A stretch of DNA of 64,000 nucleotides from Octopus vulgaris. Taxonomy: Eukaryota. The notes beneath the pieces were generated by a model. That model searched no databases. It was not told the origin of the DNA and saw only the letters and a program-made list of their open reading frames with translations. The DNA lies in NCBI GenBank assembly GCA_951406725.2, contig OX597815.1:201810001-201874000 (forward strand), in the 5' to 3' direction. Position 1 is the stretch's first letter. Every line of letters starts with the position of its first letter. A program made the translations under genes and the position numbers. Below are positions 52,790 through 64,000 of this stretch, piece after piece.

Positions 52790-54478
52790 TGTGGGGGGGG
52801 CGAGCGTATGTTCCTTATGCATTCCAAAGCGAATTGCCGATTTTGAGGTATGGGGTATCAAAAGATTCAGTAGGCTTTTGGCTACCAACTAAACTATATT
52901 TTCATTCATATATTCGCATTACAAAAGTTTATTGTTATTTTTCGTTTAGTCAATCTATCGTAAACGACAATTTATATCACCAGCACAACGTCGATGACGT
53001 CACAATTTCAATATGAGTGTGTTCGCGCGTTCGTTACCTACGTTTGGCCGATGGCTAACAAGTATATGTGTACGATGGTGTATGTGGTTGTCAGTATACA
53101 TACATTTTTGTGCCGACTGACACACAGGGACAGCGATAGGTTTAAGGTATGCGTTAATGTATGTGTGTGTTTGCGTGTGTGTGTGTTTGTGTGTATGTGT
53201 CTTTGTTTATACGTGTAACTTTTTTTGGAAGTTTCTTGGACTTTAAACGAACAACAACGTTCATTTTCAAGTACTACAAACATGGAGACTTGTCTGATTT
53301 CTCACCACTCACAATACTCGCAAATATTTCTGAAATAAATATTATTCTGGTTTGTATAACAAATTCCGAAAGTTGGCGAAGAAGAAAGCCTCAACGGCTC
53401 TTTCAATATAATTGCAGAAATTTTATTCCACTCCTAACCAGTTTCAATATAATTTTTAAGAGTCCTTCCAAGCTTCTTCACCACCGAGTATCTGCATCGA
53501 ACAATCTTTTTAGGGCGTTAGTCAGTATATATGCTACAGCCTATAACGTTACACACTTAAAAATATATATAGTAATGTCAAATTAATTTATATCTTGCTA
53601 CATACATCATTCAGCAAATATTTTAAATTAACGTTCACAAAAACAGCAACTTCCTTTCTATATACTTTGTTCACCGTTCGTTTCAAAATTATAAAATAAA
53701 TTATTTTTGTATGAAAAATTGAATTATACCTTCTGAATTTTCTTGGACTTTAACTCTCTTCGCCAATATATACAATCTTGAATTTTATAACATTTAGTAC
53801 ATATTCCAAATAAATGCTGACTTTCTGCACCTATATTGATTACATTTAAAAACGTTTGATAAATTGGTGACATTACATTTTGTTATAGCATAACTATGCC
53901 ACAGAAAGTATTTTTTTGTTTCTATATTGACTACATTTCGTTTCGCTTGAACTTCGTGTAGGCACGTTGTGCTGTTTTCAAAATTATCAATTCTATGAGT
54001 GTGTGTGTGTGTGTGTGTATGTGTGTGTGTGTGTGTGTGCGTGTGTGTGTGTGTTTCTGCGTTCCTTACATGTAGAACTGTATGTATTAAAATAAGGCAC
54101 AGTCAAGAAAATTGCATTAAAAGACCTCCACTTTTCTACATGTTATGAGGAAATACCGTAACACACACACACGCACTCACTCTCTCTCACACATGCACTC
54201 ACTCTCTCTCTCTCACACACAAATACACCCCACACCCACACCCAAAGGATTATGCATATGTGTTTATGGGTGAAGGTAAAGACTACGTACGCCCTATTTT
54301 TAGGGTGAGGGTTAGGCCGAAAACTGGTGATGTGCGTATTTTTGTCCTCCGCTATGTACATGTATATGGAAGATAATGTGTGTGAGAGAGAGGGAGAGAG
54401 GAAGAGAGAGCGTGCGTGCCACTTATACATGCAAACAAAATCATACATCACAATACTCACTTTCACTCAATCAGTCTT

Positions 54479-54543
<65 letters not shown>

Positions 54544-55648
54544 CCATTTCATATACACGTACATCTTACACTTTCTACTCTACTTTTACTTTCTCTCCTC
54601 ACTTGAAAGCAAATGTTACCTTTTCACTTTATCCTATCTTTCAATTTCTGATCTCTTCGAAGCATACAGAAATTAAAACAATTTACGGAAATTAACGAAC
54701 CATTATATGATCCCAGAAATATCGAGTTGACAACTTTGCTTCTTCAAACGAAAGAATGCCAGTAAATAACATCCTTTGATACACATACACACAATCTACG
54801 TTAAACCTTTGTGAGAATTATGTCATTTCTTGCAGTCTGCAGGCACACATTACAGCTAAATCCAATTGAAATGATCTTTTTCAATTGTATAATTTGCGAT
54901 TGTAATGGGTGTATTTGAAAACCTGATCTACGATATAAACGTAAAAAGAAGTTTACCTAGAAATCCTGTCCTCTATCTCTTCTTTCTAGCATGTCCGAGG
55001 TGACATTTCCGTCCCCCACTTATTTTTTTTTTTCCTAAATTTCTTCCGATTCCTATGTTTGCGATACAGGAGATTAGAATTTCACCAACATAACGCGGTC
55101 TCAAGATTTTAATTGTCTCCCTCTCCACACCATATTCATTTTTTACATGAAGAAAAACCAGAGTGTACGAGTCGTGAAGAATTTTACCTATCAACATATC
55201 TGGGCGAATGGTTGGTGAGGTGGGGGAAGGGGTTTTGTGTGTTTCTTTAAGAAAAATTAAATCATGAAAAATATATATATTTACATATTTCCCAAATTCG
55301 TAATCCCTATTTTTTTCTACGTAGATACAAAAAAAAAAAATTTTCAAAAAGTTACAAATTAAGAAATTGCGGTGGGATAGGAGGAAATTAAAATATTGAA
55401 AACGTGATTTCTGGACAAAATCAAATTAACCCACTTTTATACGATGAAACAAGGTGTTCCTTCTGATCTTTTCTGATTCTTCTTAAGAACAGAAAGCACT
55501 TTCATGCAAATTGCACCCTCGCTTTTCACTATTAAACAAACAATAACTTCCACTATTCCATGAACTATATATCAGCTGTGCATATTCTTTCCATAGACGA
55601 TGTGCTTGTAAGTCTTAACACCCGGGCAACGCCAGGATGAACTGCTAG
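52790..55648 (+). mobile_element. Probable ~2.9-kb non-autonomous Helitron
   Basis: 5' part homologous to 61725-62105 (ttgccgattttga..ggtatcaaaagattcagta..ctaccaactaaact); 3' hairpin cccgggcaacgccagg then CTAG at 55645-55648; continuity between the two ends is inferred. Confidence 0.5.
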
Positions 55649-55667
55649 TATATATATATATATATAT

Positions 55668-55831
55668 ACGACGGACTTCTTTCTGTTTCCATCTACCAAA
55701 TTCACTCGCAAGGCTTTGGTTGGCCCGATGCTATAGTACGAGACGCTTGCCTAAGCTGCCATGCTGCGGGACTGAAACGGGAACCATGTGGTTGGGAAGC
55801 AAGCTTCGTACCACACAGCCACTCCTGCGGC
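55668..55831 (-). mobile_element. SINE family B, 5' half
   Basis: cttctttctgtttccatctaccaaatt...accacacagccactcctgc. Confidence 0.75.
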
Positions 55832-56734
55832 TATATTTGTGTGTGTGTAGGTTTAAGTGTACAACAGGTAGAGGACGGTACTCAACACACTTGATAGGAG
55901 TTACATACTTATGAATTGTTTGAGTCAAACCGTCATTAAATAATATATACACATACATAAACATACATACAGACACACACATATACAGAGGCAGAGAGAT
56001 TAACAGCGCGAGTGAGACTGAGATAGAGAGAGAAAGACTTTGAATTTCAGCTTTTGTGGTAAAACTGCCATGGGAATTAATTGCTTCGAGTAGAAGTGCT
56101 TTTCGTGATGAGGTTTAAAAGTCAATGACATTGAATCTAGTGAACTTTTAAAATATTTGTCTAGTGCATTGTTTAAACAGGCATTGATGGAACTACTGTT
56201 CTTTCATAAAGTAAGTTTGTTTTTTCGTCTAATGATGTCTATACTGATTAAATCAAAATCAATTTCCTGGAATTTACCATTTCGCATTTGGCGCTTCTAA
56301 GTAGGTGTGACTATATGGTCATTCAATCTTATGCATGCCGTCGTAAATCTATTCTTCTATTCTTTTGTATTTGGTATATTTTGTATTCGGATTGTTCTGA
56401 TTGTATTTTATATTAAATTATATATATGGGCATTCCATTTTGGTTTAGTTATTCTGTCACAGAGTTTTGGTGGGTAACCATGTAGCGATCTCATATTTCA
56501 ATAAGTTTGGCTTTACAGAAGGTATTTCTTTTATAGATTTCAAATTTTACATTATATATCAAGTTGGTGATATTTGGTTTGAATATATCCAGATCTTTGA
56601 GCTTCAGTGTGCAACGATGTTTTCGTTGTTCGATAGTGTTCCATGTTCATTTGGTTTCTCTATTCCAGGGTAGTTCACGACCTGTTGCAAACAATTCCAA
56701 ACACCATACATATGCACACACAAACACCAATCTA

Positions 56735-56787
<53 letters not shown>

Positions 56788-56866
56788 TATATATATATGT
56801 ACATATATATATACATACATATGTATATATATATATATACATATGTATATATATATGTATACATAC

Positions 56867-56911
<45 letters not shown>

Positions 56912-56961
56912 GTGTGTGTATATATATATACATATATATATATATATGTATATATATATAT
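56735..56961. repeat. (TA)n-rich microsatellite
   Basis: Direct reading. Confidence 0.95.
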
Positions 56962-57860
56962 GGATTGAGCATCGACATCAAGAAGACTCACTTACTCTAC
57001 TAACCTCCTCCCAATGCCTGTGTTGACAACCCGCCATCGATTCGACTCGAAGGAATTCCACTGGAAAATGTGAACCATTTCTGTTACCTTGGGAGCCATC
57101 TGTCAGCAAAGTAGACCTCAGCAATGAAATCTAACACCGTCTGAAGTGTTCAGGAACAGCTTTCGGCAAGTTTCGAATAAGAGTTTTTGCTGATCGGGAC
57201 ATCCGAACCGAAACCAGACTCATGGTGTACAGGGCAGTCATTATTCCAAACCTCCTTTACGCATCCGAAACCTGGACCCCGTATAGTCACGACCTCAAAG
57301 CGCTCGAGAAATTTCACAAACGCTGTCTTCGGAAGATCAGCTGGGAAGACAGAAGAACAAACGTCAGCGTGCTACAAGAACCAAATATGACCAGCATCGA
57401 AGCCTATGTCATCAAAGGCCAACTAAGATGGAGCGGTCACGTGGTTAGAATGACTGACGAACGACTTCCCAAACAGATCTTCTACTCCCAACTCAAAGAC
57501 GGCAAGCGTACAAAAGGAGGCCAGAAGAAACGCTACAAGGACTCCCTAAAAACGAACCTCAAAAAGTGTGACATCGACTTCATTAACTGGGCGGAAACGG
57601 CAAAAAACAGACCACTCTGGAAAACCACCATCCATGAGGGAACGGCGACTTTCGAGTCGAAAAGGTCTGCAGAGCTGGAGGAGAAAAGACGACGACGGAA
57701 GGAGCGCCAACAACAACCACGTGTGACTTTCCCATCCGGCACTAGATGTCCGCACTGCGACCGATCTTTTCAAGCAAGAATTGGTCTTATCGGTCACCTA
57801 TGGACTCACCAGTAAATTTGCGCGAAGACCATCATCCTCGATCTTGAGGGATTGCCATCA
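56962..57860 (+). mobile_element. 5'-truncated RTE-clade LINE inserted in (TA)n
   Basis: [21 protein letters not shown], then a 197-aa open C-terminus; 3' end catcctcgatcttgagggattgccatca. Confidence 0.92.
57222..57815 (+). pseudogene. RTE ORF2 C-terminal region (RT thumb plus C2H2 finger)
   Basis: VYRAVIIPNLLYASETWT, LRWSGHVVRMTDERLPKQIFY, GGQKKRYKDSLK, CPHCDRSFQARIGLIGHLWTH. Confidence 0.92.
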
Positions 57861-58173
57861 TATATATATATATATATATGATGATGAAAAACACCCTCAT
57901 ATATATATATATATATATATATGAGACAAACACCCCCGGCTGCCGGAACTGCATCCAGGAACACCGTGTTTCTTATTTTGATAATCAGTGAATAAACTTC
58001 ACTGAATATAGATATATACAATTACGAAGTCGAGGCAAATATCACCAGCCGACCTATTTTTTTGGGGGAGTCGTTATTCTGGTGTGTTTGTTTTGAGTGC
58101 GTCATTGTGAAGAGGTTGTGAGTTCGAGTTCGTTGCTGGAGGACGTGGTGAATTTTATTTGGAGATTTTGAAA

Positions 58174-59247
58174 ATGCAAGACCAGACGTATGCGAGAGCA
58201 GCAGGCAGAGGCCTGGTTGCCAGTGAACTAGAAATGGAAGAAGTGGTAGTCGAGAAGAAGACTTTAGAAAAATATTTCGACAGTTTGAAGAGGGAGGGTG
58301 ACTGCGTGAGAGTCACACCGTCCGAAGAAGAAGAAAACAACGCGGAGAAACGTATGATAACATACAGGACATGGTGTGTGGCGTCAAGAAAAATAGAAGT
58401 AGCAAAGACGGAAGAAATAGAGAAATGTCTTCAAGGAATTGAGGGTGAACCTACCTTTTTCAACAGAGGAAGAAAGTATGCCACAGTGGTGGTACACTTT
58501 AAAAATGGAAATGAAGCAAGAAAGAATGCAACAAACATTCTGAAATCTGAAAGGTGGACTTTATTACCTAGTTACTGCGGAAAGAGGGCAGTCACAATAA
58601 GAATTAGTAGGATTTCGCCCGAACTTAACATGGAGAGGATATTAGCGGCAGTAGTTTTCAACTGCAAGGAAAGTGTGGAGGTGGTGAAGGTGGAAAAGTC
58701 AACAGAAGTTAAGTGGTGGGGATATGCGGTACAGGTTCTGGCACATATAACCGTGCCAGACCTATACAACGTCCCGGAGGAGTTGGTCTTCCCTGATGAG
58801 ACACGGCTTAAAGTCGTGGTAGAGGGAAGACCTCCAGTTTCTTATAATTGCAAATTAAGAGGCCACATAAAGGATGTGTGCCCGCTGGAGAAAACGATAA
58901 CACCGCAGGCTGTAACGAAGGAGTGGAAAGATACCTGTGTGGAGGAGGAAGAAGTGCAGGAGGAAACGAAAGCAGTGGAGAGGCAAACGGAGGAGCAGCT
59001 AATTGAGGATGTGGAAGAAGAACGTGCAAGTGCAGAGGATGAAAGAACAGAAGATAGGAATAGAACAAGGGTGGAATCACCACCGAATGTTCTAAAAAAG
59101 AAAGAAATCAAAAGCAAGATAACAGAAGAAAAAGAAGAGAGAACGTGCAAAGAAAAGGACGAACAGACAAAGACAGAGGTAAACCTAGAATGGAGAAAAA
59201 AAGTGAGAGAACAGTTGGATGCTGTAAAAAGGGAAAAAGACCTGTAG
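58174..59247 (+). CDS. L1/Tx1-type ORF1 (gag-like) nucleic-acid-binding protein: putative RRM-like region, zinc knuckle, Glu/Lys-rich coiled tail
   Basis: Longest ORF in the window (362 codons from 58159; first ATG 58174); N-terminal TYARAA; VVEGRPPV(S)YNCKLRGHIKDVCP is CX2CX4HX4C with the first Cys codon TGT changed to TCT. Confidence 0.72.
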   Translation: MQDQTYARAAGRGLVASELEMEEVVVEKKTLEKYFDSLKREGDCVRVTPSEEEENNAEKRMITYRTWCVASRKIEVAKTEEIEKCLQGIEGEPTFFNRGRKYATVVVHFKNGNEARKNATNILKSERWTLLPSYCGKRAVTIRISRISPELNMERILAAVVFNCKESVEVVKVEKSTEVKWWGYAVQVLAHITVPDLYNVPEELVFPDETRLKVVVEGRPPVSYNCKLRGHIKDVCPLEKTITPQAVTKEWKDTCVEEEEVQEETKAVERQTEEQLIEDVEEERASAEDERTEDRNRTRVESPPNVLKKKEIKSKITEEKEERTCKEKDEQTKTEVNLEWRKKVREQLDAVKREKDL

Positions 59248-59534
59248 GAAAATACCTGAAAGTATTCGTGTTGTACGTGAAAGACACAGAAGTGGAAAAA
59301 AGACTTGCAGGTAGGAAAGGATTGATTAGGGTTAAATTACACCCAAAACTGCATGATGACGATGTCAAAGGGGTAGTTGTAGATAAAGGAACATTTACTG
59401 AATTGAAAAGTATGTTTTATCAGGTTTATTTAACGTATTATGTATGTTATGACAATTTGCCAAATGTGATAGACCAGATGGAATTAACAAAGTACATTAC
59501 GGACGAACGTCCAACAGAACTGGAATTTATGTAA
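59145..59534 (+). CDS. Probable frameshifted C-terminal continuation of the ORF1-like protein; unknown domain
   Basis: Overlaps the end of ORF1 in the -1 frame; non-repetitive, protein-like sequence RPVGKYLKVFVLYVKDTEVEKRLAG... Confidence 0.45.
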   Translation: MQRKGRTDKDRGKPRMEKKSERTVGCCKKGKRPVGKYLKVFVLYVKDTEVEKRLAGRKGLIRVKLHPKLHDDDVKGVVVDKGTFTELKSMFYQVYLTYYVCYDNLPNVIDQMELTKYITDERPTELEFM

Positions 59535-59802
59535 TTGTAAAATTGTAACATTGTAAATTGTAAAATGTAAAATTTTATTTTGAACTGGAATATATGTAAT
59601 TGTAAAATTGTAAAATGTAAAATTGTATTTTAAACGGAACTGCGAGTTGGGGAGTTCGTAAGCCGTTCCATCTAACTCATTACACATAATTCATCTTTAT
59701 TTCATATTTTATTTTTTACTTTATGTACCCCATGTCCCGTCTTGTAATGTCCCCTCTGCATTCGGGCCATCGTGCACATAATAAAGATATAATATCACCA
59801 GC

Positions 59803-59878
59803 TGACCGGTGTCTGCTACTCTAGGCCGATGAAGGACAACGATCCTGAAACACGGTGTCCCTAGATGCAGTTCCGGCA
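59803..59878 (+). ncRNA. Type I hammerhead ribozyme, core variant CCGAUGA
   Basis: Stem I tctagg/cctaga extended by ctgc/gcag and ccgg/ccgg; CCGATGA 59826-59832; stem II agga/tcct; GAAA 59847-59850; stem III cac/gtg; GTC cleavage after 59859. Confidence 0.8.
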
Positions 59879-60094
59879 CCCGGGGGTGTTTGTCTCCCCT
59901 TCGTATATGTATATAAGGACACAGGGAAAAAAATGTGTCAAAGCTATCAGGAGGCGTTCGATGCTTCCTAGGGCTATACAGCGGTGGTGTACCCCCTACT
60001 GTCACGTTCTTGCTAGATTGACAGTATACACCCATTCTATCGCCCCACCACCGTACATGTCTCTACGAGAGATTTAGAAATTCAATATTTCTTA

Positions 60095-60146
60095 TTATAT
60101 ATGTATATATATATATATGTATATATATATATGTATATATGTTCAT

Positions 60147-60222
<76 letters not shown>

Positions 60223-60228
60223 TATATT
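60095..60228. repeat. (TA)n microsatellite
   Basis: Direct reading. Confidence 0.95.
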
Positions 60229-60450
60229 TAATCAATATAGGGTAGCAAAAAATTCAATAGAAATTTTTTCGCCACCAGCGGTCCAGTGAGAATGAGTAAA
60301 TAGTCGCAGACTATATATATATAAATTCAACAATATAAAGGAATGACCCTGGTAGGCCATTCGTCTCACTAGAAAGAGCAACCATACTCAAACCGCTAAA
60401 TAGTAGTAATTCAGAAATTAAAGGTAAATCAAAAACATTTACCTTAATCA

Positions 60451-60559
60451 TCCTTGGACAATGCATTGTTTCAACGTAATTTATGGCAAAACCAGCCTAA
60501 TTAAATTAAATTAAATTTAATCAAGTCAATCAACCATTGGTTCGTCTCATCGGCAAGGA
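60451..60559 (-). ncRNA. Type I hammerhead ribozyme (left arm of the palindrome)
   Basis: Minus strand: tccttg-CCGATGA-gacg...cgtt-GAAA-caatgcattg-TC-caagga; palindromic stem III. Confidence 0.72.
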
Positions 60560-60585
60560 AACCAGAAGATTTATTCCTCCTGGTT

Positions 60586-60694
60586 TCCTTGCCGATGAGA
60601 CGAACCAATGGTAGATTGACTTGATTAAATTAAATTTTATTTAATTAGGCTGGTTTTGCCATAAATTACGTTCAAACAATGCATTGTCCAAGGA
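60586..60694 (+). ncRNA. Type I hammerhead copy (right arm) with GAAA mutated to CAAA
   Basis: tccttg-CCGATGA-gacg...cgtt-CAAA-caatgcattg-TC-caagga. Confidence 0.6.
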
Positions 60695-60814
60695 TGATTA
60701 AGGTAAATGTTTTTGATTTACCTTTAATTTCTGAATTACTACTATTTAGCGGTTTGAGTATGGCTGCTCTTTCTAGTGAGACGAATGGCCTACCAGGGTT
60801 ATTCCTTTATATTG

Positions 60815-60873
<59 letters not shown>

Positions 60874-61233
60874 TACATATAAATATACGTACATATACAT
60901 ATATGTGTGAGTGCGTGTGTGTGTATTTGAATGAAGTGTTAAGGGGTATTTGTGCGCTGCAATATCAATTTCAGTATGTTTTACACTAGCATTAAAAATT
61001 TTCGAGATCCTATTGCACTTGTGAGAAAAGCAATGCTTCTGAAGAGAAGAAATATGTACATTCTTTAATTTCAATACCGTCAAATCCGATTACGGGTATG
61101 ATATGTACATCAATTCATAAATGCATACATCCATACACACACTTATGTGCTAGTATACATTATACATATATACGTTTACATACGTATGCATGTATGTATA
61201 TAGATATATGCCTATATACATAGGTAGAGAGAA

Positions 61234-61240
61234 AGATAGG

Positions 61241-61301
<61 letters not shown>
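61234..61301. repeat. (GATA)n microsatellite
   Basis: Direct reading. Confidence 0.95.
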
Positions 61302-61347
61302 GCACACAGGCTTGTACATCATGTACCAGCGTACAAAAAGTCACACG

Positions 61348-61407
<60 letters not shown>

Positions 61408-61408
<1 letters not shown>

Positions 61409-61701
61409 GATATGGGATAAAAATTCTCGAAAAAATGTTTATCAATGGCCAGCATATTAAAAAATACCTTTAATGGTTAAATTTCATAAACAACTTATAA
61501 ACAAGGGCCACAAAAAATTCTAATGCCAAATATGCTGAAATGTAGACTTATTCGTCAATAACCATATCATTTATCACTATAGGCACGTATCTCGAAAGAC
61601 ACGTGCCTATAGTGATAAATTATAAGGTTATTGACGAATAAGTCTACATTTCAGCATATTTGGCATTAGAATTTTTTCTTTTGCCCTTCTTTATAAGTTG
61701 T
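61408..61701. mobile_element. (TA)n-flanked element with a 212-bp foldback (61490-61701)
   Basis: acaacttataa...cactataggcacgtatct-cgaa-agacacgtgcctatagtg...ttataagttgt. Confidence 0.8.
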
Positions 61702-61724
61702 ATATATATATATATATATATTTA

Positions 61725-62105
61725 TATATAATAATAAAAGAGAGATTGTACGTGTGAGCGTGTGTTCCTTATACATTCCCACACCGAGTTGCCGATTTTG
61801 ATGTATGTGGTATCAAAAGATTCAGTACTATTTCCGCTACCAACTAAACTTTATTTTCATTGACATATTTCCATTACAACAATTTTAAATTATAATCTTT
61901 CCAGAACTCAACTATCTTAAGTATTTTATACGACGTCTACGACAATGACGTCACATTTTCTATATGAGCATGTACCTTAAAAGACACCCATCATTTCGAC
62001 AAACACCTTCACTCGCTCATTATATTTCTCCTTCTCTGTGTTTCTCTCTCTCTCGCACACACACACACACACACAGACGTTCATTTCATATACACGTACA
62101 TACGT
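61725..62105 (+). mobile_element. 5' part of a Helitron-like repeat
   Basis: Starts tatataataataaaag; homologous to 52800-53020 and 54460-54570. Confidence 0.5.
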
Positions 62106-63064
62106 GGTATTTTTACGGAATGACCGAGTGAAACGCAGAAAGAGGACAAGACAGAGAGACAAGAGAAAGAAAGAGAGACAGAAAACAAGTTTCTATAGAA
62201 GTTGAAATACGGATAGTGGCTGAGAGACAGAGGCTGGTGCTTCATGCCCTATGTATGTTCTATAGTTGAAATTGAAAGAAAGCCAGCACGAAATGGATAC
62301 TGTATAGGTAAAGGTGAAAGAAAGCGGCACAAATAGAGTGACAAAGCGGGAGGGAGGGGAACCCTGAGAACCCCAGAAATGAGGTCGTATCGTACAATTT
62401 TAAGGTCATTTTCACTTTCCTCCCATGTTGCACGCATGCATAGAAGTAGTCATTATCTTTCTCTTTCAATTTGTCATTTTAATGTACGGAGACCATCTGA
62501 TGTTAACACATTACAACTTCACTATAATTCCTTCTTTTGGAATTAAGAAAGGTATCCAAAAATAACTTCCTTTGGCACACACACATACATATACACACAC
62601 ACATACACACACACATACAAACACGCACGCATACACACACACACACGCACGCACGCACGCACAGTGAATTAAAGTTCTGTATGAATTATGTTACTTTTTG
62701 CAGCACCATTATCCTTCTAAAAGCTAGGTTAATCAAAACACTGGTTTTGGCATTAAACTTTTGAAACATGTCCTAACAAATTTTACCAAATATATACAAT
62801 TTATACCGAAATCCACGATGAAACACATCGTCTTGTTTTTGTATCGCTACCAGGGATGTCGGAAGAAATTTAAGTTAAAACCTTGTACGCTCTTGTAGAA
62901 GCTCAGGGAATTGAAAATGACATATAAGAGGCGTGAACTGGCATGTTGAAATGCATGTTTACGAGTTTCTGGTTAAATTGCGGTACGATTCTGGTTAAAT
63001 TGGTACGTTTCTGTTTTTGCCATTTCTGCCAATGGACCCCGAGAAAAATTCAGCAACTGGGACT

Positions 63065-63254
63065 TACTCTTTTACTCTTTTACTTGTTTCAGTCATTTGA
63101 CTGCAGCCATGCTGGAGCACCGCCTTTAGTCGAGCAAATCGACCCCGGAACTTATTCTTTGTAAGCCCAGTACTTGTTCTATCGGTCTCTTTTGCCGAAC
63201 CGCTAAGTGACCGGGACATAAACACACCAGCATCGCTTGTCAGGCAATGCTAGA

Positions 63255-63304
<50 letters not shown>

Positions 63305-63475
63305 CATATATACGGCAGGCTTCTTTCAGTTTCCGTCTACCAAATCCACTCACAAGGCATTGGTCGGCCCGGGGTTATAGCAGAAGACACTTGCCCAAGA
63401 TGCCACGCAGTGGGACTGAACCCGGAACCATGTGGTTGGTTAGTAAGCTACTTACCACACAGCCACTCCTGCGCC
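63065..63475 (-). mobile_element. SINE family B
   Basis: Near-identical to 13488-13888. Confidence 0.9.
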
Positions 63476-63629
63476 TATGTAAATCTTATAAATCTTTTTA
63501 ATAGACTTTACTTTCTTTTGCCGAAAAGTGAACGCTTTGGCCTTTTTGCCTGTTGCTGTTGTACCAATAGGACTGCAATGCTTGAAACAAAGTACACGTG
63601 TAAATGTATTGGCGTTTATTGAAAAGATA

Positions 63630-63995
63630 GCATATACTTTTGTAAATGGAATGCTAAGACAAAATGGAAGACGGTCAAAGCCAAAATTTTCAATACCTGA
63701 ATGGAATTTTTACGAGTTCACACTTGATGGTAAAGCACGTACAATGAATTCTATTGAAGGACGGCATAGAAGATTTAGTGTTTTAAGATCGAATTCAAAT
63801 ATATATAATGTTGTTGATGTTCTAAGACGTGAAGAACAAATCATCAAACAAGATTATCTCATCTTACCGTAGGAGCAAGCCCCAAGACGAAAAGTACTAA
63901 AGAAGCAAGAAGAGAGAAAATGATACTACAAGTTGTTACCCATTAGCAGAATCGATCAATGGAAGATTACCTTCGTAGTATTGTGCATAATCAGG
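63630..63995 (+). mobile_element. MULE-type transposase C-terminal fragment
   Basis: PKFSIPEWNFY...GKARTMNSIEGRHRRF...NIYNVVDVLRREEQ (RTNNxxEGWH motif) and DYLRSIVHN. Confidence 0.7.
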
Positions 63996-64000
63996 GTTCT

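Follow-up and report, generated by a model that had tools for sequence, protein, structure and literature searches.

Several kinds of mobile element are relevant to the locus described here. Ty3 and TRE5 insert at a fixed distance from small-RNA promoters by way of promoter-bound Pol III factors. Among the LINEs, the half-L1 elements (HAL1) are non-autonomous, carry ORF1 only and have been described from mammals, where the account in PMC5753468 derives them from L1. LINEs of the Tx1 clade, as treated in PMC4494074, go to repeats and snRNA genes (Tx1 in Tx1D, Keno in U2, and Tx1-Mar), form tandem insertions around the target-site duplication and, where they are target-specific, have been suggested to use upstream promoters. 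Keno and Utopia have one U2 site in common (PMC4640811). Thirteen recently active L1-Tx1 families are known from Octopus vulgaris (PMC13282606), and the families described below may already be catalogued in Repbase or Dfam. Animal non-LTR retrozymes, in the description of PMC7229834, are repeats of ~350-390 bp with a canonical type I hammerhead and no protein, for which an origin from Penelope-like elements has been proposed in a preprint (bioRxiv 10.64898/2026.07.22.740005); canonical metazoan hammerheads with a short helix II are said to work as dimers (PMC4209133), and newt satellite 2 is credited with an snRNA-type promoter inside a hammerhead repeat (cited in PMC2220036). The Penelope-like elements themselves are characterized by partial tandems, an inverted 5'-truncated copy, a tail and a bias toward (TA)n (as outlined in PMC8557442), and two RT start sites have been described for them (PMC11167929).

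In the 64,000-nucleotide stretch of Octopus vulgaris DNA analysed here (the window; all positions refer to it, and to its forward strand unless otherwise stated), the original prediction had singled out positions 57923-59904 as a candidate retroelement in which a gag/ORF1 gene is bracketed by hammerhead-derived inverted repeats. Comparison with other copies in the genome makes it highly probable that these are two nested elements and not one, namely an ORF1-only LINE inside a ~365-bp hammerhead retrozyme, with a site-specific insertion and a well supported anatomy. The key to this anatomy is a 17-bp direct repeat (58038-58054 and 59791-59807), which the original prediction had overlooked. The same nest recurs elsewhere, with the LINE at a fixed spot at the start of a very common hammerhead repeat, and relatives of the LINE occupy the equivalent spot in other ribozyme repeats and in U2 snRNA genes. 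Compared with its own genome, the unit gave at least 103 matches, at least 46 of them long, among the best 39 of 1242 candidates; our searches of this 2.8-Gb genome cover the best 40 candidates, with old or odd copies under-represented. Much of what had been noticed in the unit was confirmed: its flanks are TA-rich, an AATAAA is located at 59780, a type I hammerhead pattern occupies 59820-59865 (with the GUC at 59857-59859), and no RT or endonuclease was found among the ORFs of the unit. The right boundary at 59904 was wrong, since sequence common to other copies reaches ~60096 and is then followed by (TA)n.

The inner element (58055-59790) is a HAL1-like, non-autonomous LINE made of a T-rich 5' UTR, ORF1 and a 3' tail, as delimited by its long copies and by the junction tables. 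Its body of 1.74 kb is bracketed by the target-site duplications, both defined by junction comparison; the left copy, equivalent to positions -3 to +14 relative to the predicted start, frequently shows the variant of the donor. The coding region (58174-59534) comprises a predicted tandem RRM, a CCHC knuckle, a charged linker and a C-terminal domain, and is broken in the window copy. What had been described as a 362-codon ORF with an overlapping 129-codon continuation is really a single ORF of ~452 aa in the family, followed by the tail and the duplication, with no ORF2. Relative to the copy L002, one base is missing from the window copy at 59222/59223, and the resulting frameshift leaves a first piece of 357 aa counted from the first ATG (58174) and a second of 156 aa between stops (114 if counted from its own first ATG). 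The zinc knuckle reported at the outset is a true feature of the family, with CCHC in 12/12 aligned intact copies, but it is degenerate in the window copy (SYNCKLRGHIKDVC), where the first Cys has been replaced by Ser. The ORF1 family evolves under purifying selection: among 12 intact copies the median dN/dS is 0.12 over 57 pairs in the core (residues 60-240), and 0.26 over 56 pairs for the ORF as a whole.

Pfam detected nothing significant in the window ORFs and zf-CCHC at E 0.06 in an intact copy, and the L1 ORF1 domain was matched by neither; a sequence search against the PDB retrieved weak zinc-knuckle matches, and a protein search one named homologue only, named homologues being from octopods. 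The structure model (mean pLDDT 63.6, with 70-90 in the core) matches tandem-RRM proteins (best E 4e-4), and its neighbours in the atlas are CCHC and ZCCHC3-like clusters. Of the initial gag/ORF1 label, the second half can be kept: on the modelled fold, the family ORF is a LINE ORF1 and not a retroviral gag.

A 5.5-kb autonomous LINE, which encodes an ORF1 of its own and an APE-RT ORF2, adjoins some of the ORF1-only copies and has a similar tail; it is the candidate partner. The 3' tail of the window element (59746-59790), where the AATAAA is found, aligns with the tail of this LINE in two common blocks (score 44 vs. a maximum of 39 in 1000 shuffles). A genome search with the tail only, with a query free of target sequence, gave 189 candidates and returned 30 loci, of which 25 had the window tail, four another tail subfamily and one was fused (two rows were assigned by eye). 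All 25 loci with the window tail continue into a target start, 18 of them directly into the hammerhead repeat and seven into another element. These numbers bear on the idea that the nesting is a matter of chance, or that the ORF is the mere 5' half of a complete LINE, which we regard as extremely improbable. ORF1-only units are in some cases found immediately 5' of an RT-encoding LINE, as this idea would have it, but in such chains each of them has its own tail and its own duplication; moreover, in a quick tree built from 41 ORFs (with long branches) the window family groups as a separate clade of 24, and it is 22-29% identical to the ORF1s of APE-RT LINEs, that of the partner included. The chain units' own tails and duplications, together with the 25/25 target starts, refute it. 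An ORF1-only element inserted in a hammerhead repeat, one of the two readings first offered, was right, except that the nesting is not accidental: the insertion is site-specific and repeated.

The same ORF1-only family was found in two further hammerhead families. At L099, one such element, the 17-bp duplication is perfect and lies in a different hammerhead family, at a site only 8/17 identical to that of the window. The left duplication carries CCGACC in 13/14 junction rows vs. 5/46 empty rows (counts that include repeated loci), and at L004 and L290 the left head is unlike the local target. That the left duplication usually shows the donor's variant is expected if the RNA begins at a captured host start.

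The outer element is abundant without any ORF. The ORF-free monomer of ~365 bp gave 40/40 scored matches near full length at 94-100% (the best 40 of 2190 candidates), and in it the sequences found upstream of the ORF element and downstream, in the hammerhead segment, are contiguous. In the window, the upstream part of the monomer (57969-58037), a predicted snRNA-type promoter region, is the one located directly 5' of the hammerhead segment in empty monomers, and the downstream part (59808-60096, then (TA)n) shows two fixed ends, one near 60040 and the other near 60096. The 50-bp inverted end described from the start is real: 57923-57972, on the reverse strand, matches 59847-59896 at 47/50 (E 8e-16) and represents an inverted 5' arm made of a fragment of the hammerhead segment. 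Such arms appeared at 21/29 empty retrozyme loci. Their inner breakpoints are scattered, so that a start at the GAAA core, to which importance had been given, is nothing special; their outer ends coincide at one site in 16/21. Most right ends of the empty retrozymes lie at a second site, 56 nt beyond that one, where (TA)n usually follows, and the join of the inverted arm in the window copy uses a TTTC microhomology. By these comparisons the 57923-57972 arm belongs to the retrozyme, and a terminal repeat of the ORF element is excluded. Terminal inverted repeats of the DIRS or DNA-transposon type were rejected because the arm is variable and occurs also without the ORF. The partial tandem, the inverted 5' arm, the fixed tail ends and the (TA)n target are, to judge from the copies compared, a Penelope-like signature of the retrozyme.

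A search for an autonomous Penelope-like element bearing the retrozyme repeat (one GIY-YIG family; 30 loci, then 21 longer stretches) revealed no consistent link. At L281 (C10:101.157-101.162 Mb), an inverted hammerhead-repeat tail (99%) is joined to the left side of a truncated partner LINE, whose right end adjoins a Penelope-like RT/GIY-YIG ORF represented by its 3' half; the locus provides a lead to the autonomous partner of the retrozyme. Further observations concern neighbouring or related sequences. L247 and L319 (C2:153.86 Mb) contain a further hammerhead family, 70-82% identical to HH2/HH3, with an inverted arm and no promoter box (see below) within 100 nt. In the window itself, a foldback with TA flanks and 257-nt arms at 97% (60312-60833) may be another inverted-arm insertion, and the 3' end of another LINE (57135-57856), with a 226-aa frame that carries a C-terminal C2H2 finger (E 0.009), terminates at the TA tract that borders the unit on its left.

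The hammerhead (59820-59865) is of type I, with a CCGAUGA core, a 6-bp stem I, a 4-bp stem II and a short near-palindromic stem III. Across hammerhead families stems I and II vary in compensatory pairs; stem III is short and palindromic, or nearly so. Cleavage is predicted to take place after 59859, likely as a dimer. To call it well-folded was an overstatement: in the monomer the catalytic fold has -6.5 vs. -11.9 kcal/mol for the MFE structure, and is therefore not the MFE, and no Rfam hammerhead family matches it, either in the window (54000-64000, E up to 1) or, at the gathering score, in 14 loci. The support for the ribozyme comes from this covariation across families, rather than from Rfam or from the monomer MFE.

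The ORF2 of the partner LINE has RVT_1 (E 1e-29) and Exo_endo_phos (E 5e-11) by Pfam, and its closest relatives carry PF13966. From architecture and behaviour it likely belongs to the Tx1 clade, and no named reference Tx1 RT was among its protein-search matches. Of the 30 best partner tails, 20 lie at other hammerhead families, five at U2 starts (U2 by Rfam), four at a target start that leads into another element, and one elsewhere, i.e., 29/30 are at hammerhead or U2 starts or in chains on those. Ten more diverged copies were located at a relative of the window's hammerhead (seven), in another repeat (two) and at a partial start (one). In two U2 arrays with four full-length partner copies, U2 +1 to +14 is duplicated and is accompanied by a head from the start of a hammerhead family. 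The site that Keno and Utopia use in U2 is at about +37, further inside than that of the octopus LINE. The copies L275 and L284 are 5'-truncated partners that retain the upstream target, and L272 and L277 are two diverged ones in a further repeat.

With the partner at hand, a different interpretation of the nest can be weighed, in which the hammerhead repeat and ORF1 make up a single protein-coding retrozyme, propagated as one unit by Penelope-like machinery. This had been the first of the two readings offered, and we now consider it improbable. At L289 and L281 inverted retrozyme arms are joined to truncated LINE bodies, the tandem filled copies of L016 share a private variant, and 12/29 partner loci with long flanks have no upstream half of the target (some are flanked by a microsatellite or by an inverted retrozyme), all of which would suit a composite mobilized as a whole, later deletion being the alternative. 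Between flank distances and body distances there is a weak correlation (r 0.24, p 0.086, 13 loci, the deleted outlier L011 included), which leaves room for some co-descent. Yet empty monomers dominate, empty arms or monomers adjoin filled ones in six loci, and the nearest flank is an empty monomer in 13/13 filled loci, though empties outnumber filled copies there. The presence of the same ORF1-only family in the two other hammerhead families, the left heads at L004 and L290 and the fact that different LINE families occupy the same hammerhead-repeat site also argue against a single unit. Occasional co-mobilization of the LINE and retrozyme composite is plausible.

A second lineage, set apart by its 3' tail, was also seen. 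It forms chains in which ORF1-only units from several diverged families, up to 11 or more of them, follow one another head to tail (C3:20.07-20.09 Mb, C4:70.03-70.05 Mb, C8:56.78-56.79 Mb and C3:177.61 Mb; L031-L034, L039-L042, L084, L087-L089). The chains stop at a fixed sequence whose translation resembles a piece of a LINE ORF1, and one of them terminates in an APE-RT LINE. Seven close relatives of the window ORF that have this second tail nest within the window's clade, which suggests, as far as the tree goes, a switch of tail and target. At L128-L130 three copies with the second tail precede one more repeated target, which all three share, without Rfam match in two. A short interspersed repeat (L035, C20:16.65 Mb, downstream of a chain; also L282) ends with the second-lineage tail, and therefore likely uses the LINE of that lineage. 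It may resemble the tRNA-derived SINEs of octopus.

Upstream of the target, an ATCAGTG box (57984-57990) lies 57 nt before the predicted start at 58041, and an ATCAGT(G/C) box is found 57-61 nt upstream of +1 in 9/9 promoter types (U1, three U2 and five hammerhead). It was present in 15/15 U1 loci, and the three U2 promoter types are mutually unrelated. Around the box, identity between the U and the hammerhead types is 21-48%, and the chance of such a match is ~8e-4 per 5-nt slot. We read the box as the proximal sequence element (PSE) of an snRNA-type Pol II promoter. Once +1 is set by the box, the duplication spans -3 to +14 in every target, that is, U2 and four hammerhead families. No ATCAGTG box was found upstream of U6 in 14/15 loci, many of which may be pseudogenes, with a single mismatched occurrence at -49. 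Tandem U6-like genes at C1:139.42 Mb (L234-L238) have a variant 5' end and a TATA-like box, and no ATCAGTG box.

The best mechanism for insertion at snRNA-type starts, and one that we hold to be reasonably probable, would be promoter-guided targeting with capture of the promoter. The competing view is that sequence suffices, i.e., that the preference of the endonuclease, together with the pairing of read-through RNA (target start, hammerhead flank) with DNA, would direct the insertion, and that the promoter is a benefit and no guide. In line with this, LINE subfamilies mostly keep to one hammerhead family, the U2 site is 11/17 identical to that of HH3, and the off-target copy at L281 landed in a Penelope-like ORF at a near-cognate sequence. 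According to PMC4494074, it is mainly the endonuclease that determines the choice of target, and cotranscription with the target is a factor that can strengthen it. Along these lines, a blind prediction of a box at the target of L272 and L277 failed (none near -58 in 25/25 loci), and no LINE tails were detected in 15 U1 loci (one array, 1.5-kb flanks) in spite of the same box being present. The box failure, the U1 genes without tails and the L281 site favour a role for sequence. Against sequence as the only determinant, one and the same ORF1-only family keeps an identical geometry at sites that are only 8-9 of 17 alike, and within one LINE lineage the sites agree at only 6-13 of 17 positions (6/17 between HH1 and HH2). 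The union of the letters used in the targets is a motif that occurs five times in the 64-kb window (two of these occurrences probably belong to the element itself), or ~1 per 13-20 kb. Such a permitted motif is too common, and sequence alone is therefore too loose unless RNA pairing adds specificity. On balance we judge targeting by sequence alone rather unlikely.

The repeat hit in L272 and L277 (L291-L315; 983 candidates) consists of tandem and inverted pieces and contains a hammerhead-like core with a long helix II ~160 nt downstream of the LINE insertion site; Rfam returned no match for this target repeat.

Returning to promoter-guided targeting, the following course of events can be proposed. 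The ORF1-only LINE was likely inserted by the endonuclease and RT of the autonomous LINE, whose own targets are likely the starts of snRNA-type promoters, with capture of the promoter. The retrozyme would be transcribed from its snRNA-type Pol II promoter and spread into (TA)n by a Penelope-like RT. The partner enzymes would nick near the start, guided by promoter context and a short ATC-containing motif, and the inserted element would then be transcribed from the captured promoter, so that its RNA would open with the host's first ~14 nt. These host-derived ~14 nt would reappear at new sites as a donor-derived head, and every insertion would regenerate the target site and hence give rise to tandem chains. 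The ORF1 protein (tandem RRM and CCHC) may package its own RNA, which would explain the purifying selection on ORF1. The downstream hammerhead may cleave read-through RNA, and the Penelope-like machinery may occasionally copy LINE and retrozyme jointly. Carried to its full extent, this becomes a three-tier stack of parasites, in which a LINE, together with its ORF1-only satellites, is led to the starts of snRNA-type promoters by promoter-bound SNAPc; they evict retrozymes and U2 from the promoters that served these, queue in chains behind a single promoter, use the downstream hammerhead for 3' processing and at times ride the Penelope-like machinery of the retrozyme to other loci. We put this forward tentatively, as a possible but speculative scheme; if true, no earlier LINE would be known to be tethered to Pol II snRNA promoters.

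Each layer is of a known kind (HAL1, target-specific Tx1, animal retrozyme), and their combination a new variant; a LINE with ORF1-only satellites aimed at the promoter start of hammerhead retrozymes and U2 was not found in the literature searched, which comprised neither Repbase and Dfam nor subscription papers and supplements. The system is a natural setting in which to test how LINEs locate their targets and change them, with one lineage, sites that are 6-13 of 17 alike and a constant distance from the box, and the fossil heads record a switch of the LINE from a ribozyme repeat to U2. A young ORF1-only family under selection is also material for asking what ORF1 does in cis. If the targeting is promoter-tethered, it would represent a new route to site-specific insertion.

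Set against the systems described at the beginning, the octopus element resembles HAL1, as known from PMC5753468, in having ORF1 only, its own tail, a duplication and purifying selection. It is unlike HAL1 in being site-specific, in its RRM and CCHC ORF1, which is far from that of the partner, and in its octopod host; judged by sequence, it is an independent derivative that works like HAL1, without a Pfam match to the ORF1p of L1. The partner resembles the Tx1-clade LINEs of PMC4494074 in the APE-RT-zf ORF2 of its relatives, in its specificity for repeats and snRNA genes, in its tandem insertions around a duplication and in the proposed use of promoters located upstream. Unlike those known, it targets hammerhead retrozyme starts and U2 +14, and its lineage keeps a constant distance from a promoter box across targets that differ in sequence. 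The repeat is short, non-coding and has a predicted type I hammerhead per unit, as in the animal retrozymes outlined in PMC7229834; unlike them, it is found mostly as dispersed insertions of 1-2 units with inverted arms rather than as long arrays, and is parasitized by a dedicated LINE lineage. The finding of snRNA-type promoters in the hammerhead repeats of newts would thus extend, by sequence, to a mollusc. The two RT start sites described for Penelope-like elements (PMC11167929) match the two fixed retrozyme ends 56 nt apart. Unlike those elements, the octopus unit has neither RT nor GIY-YIG, and its hammerhead is of the canonical short-helix-II type, in the terms of PMC4209133 a further difference from Penelope-like elements. 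Finally, unlike the targets of Ty3 and TRE5, the octopus candidate is a Pol II snRNA promoter, to which the tethering would be hypothetical.
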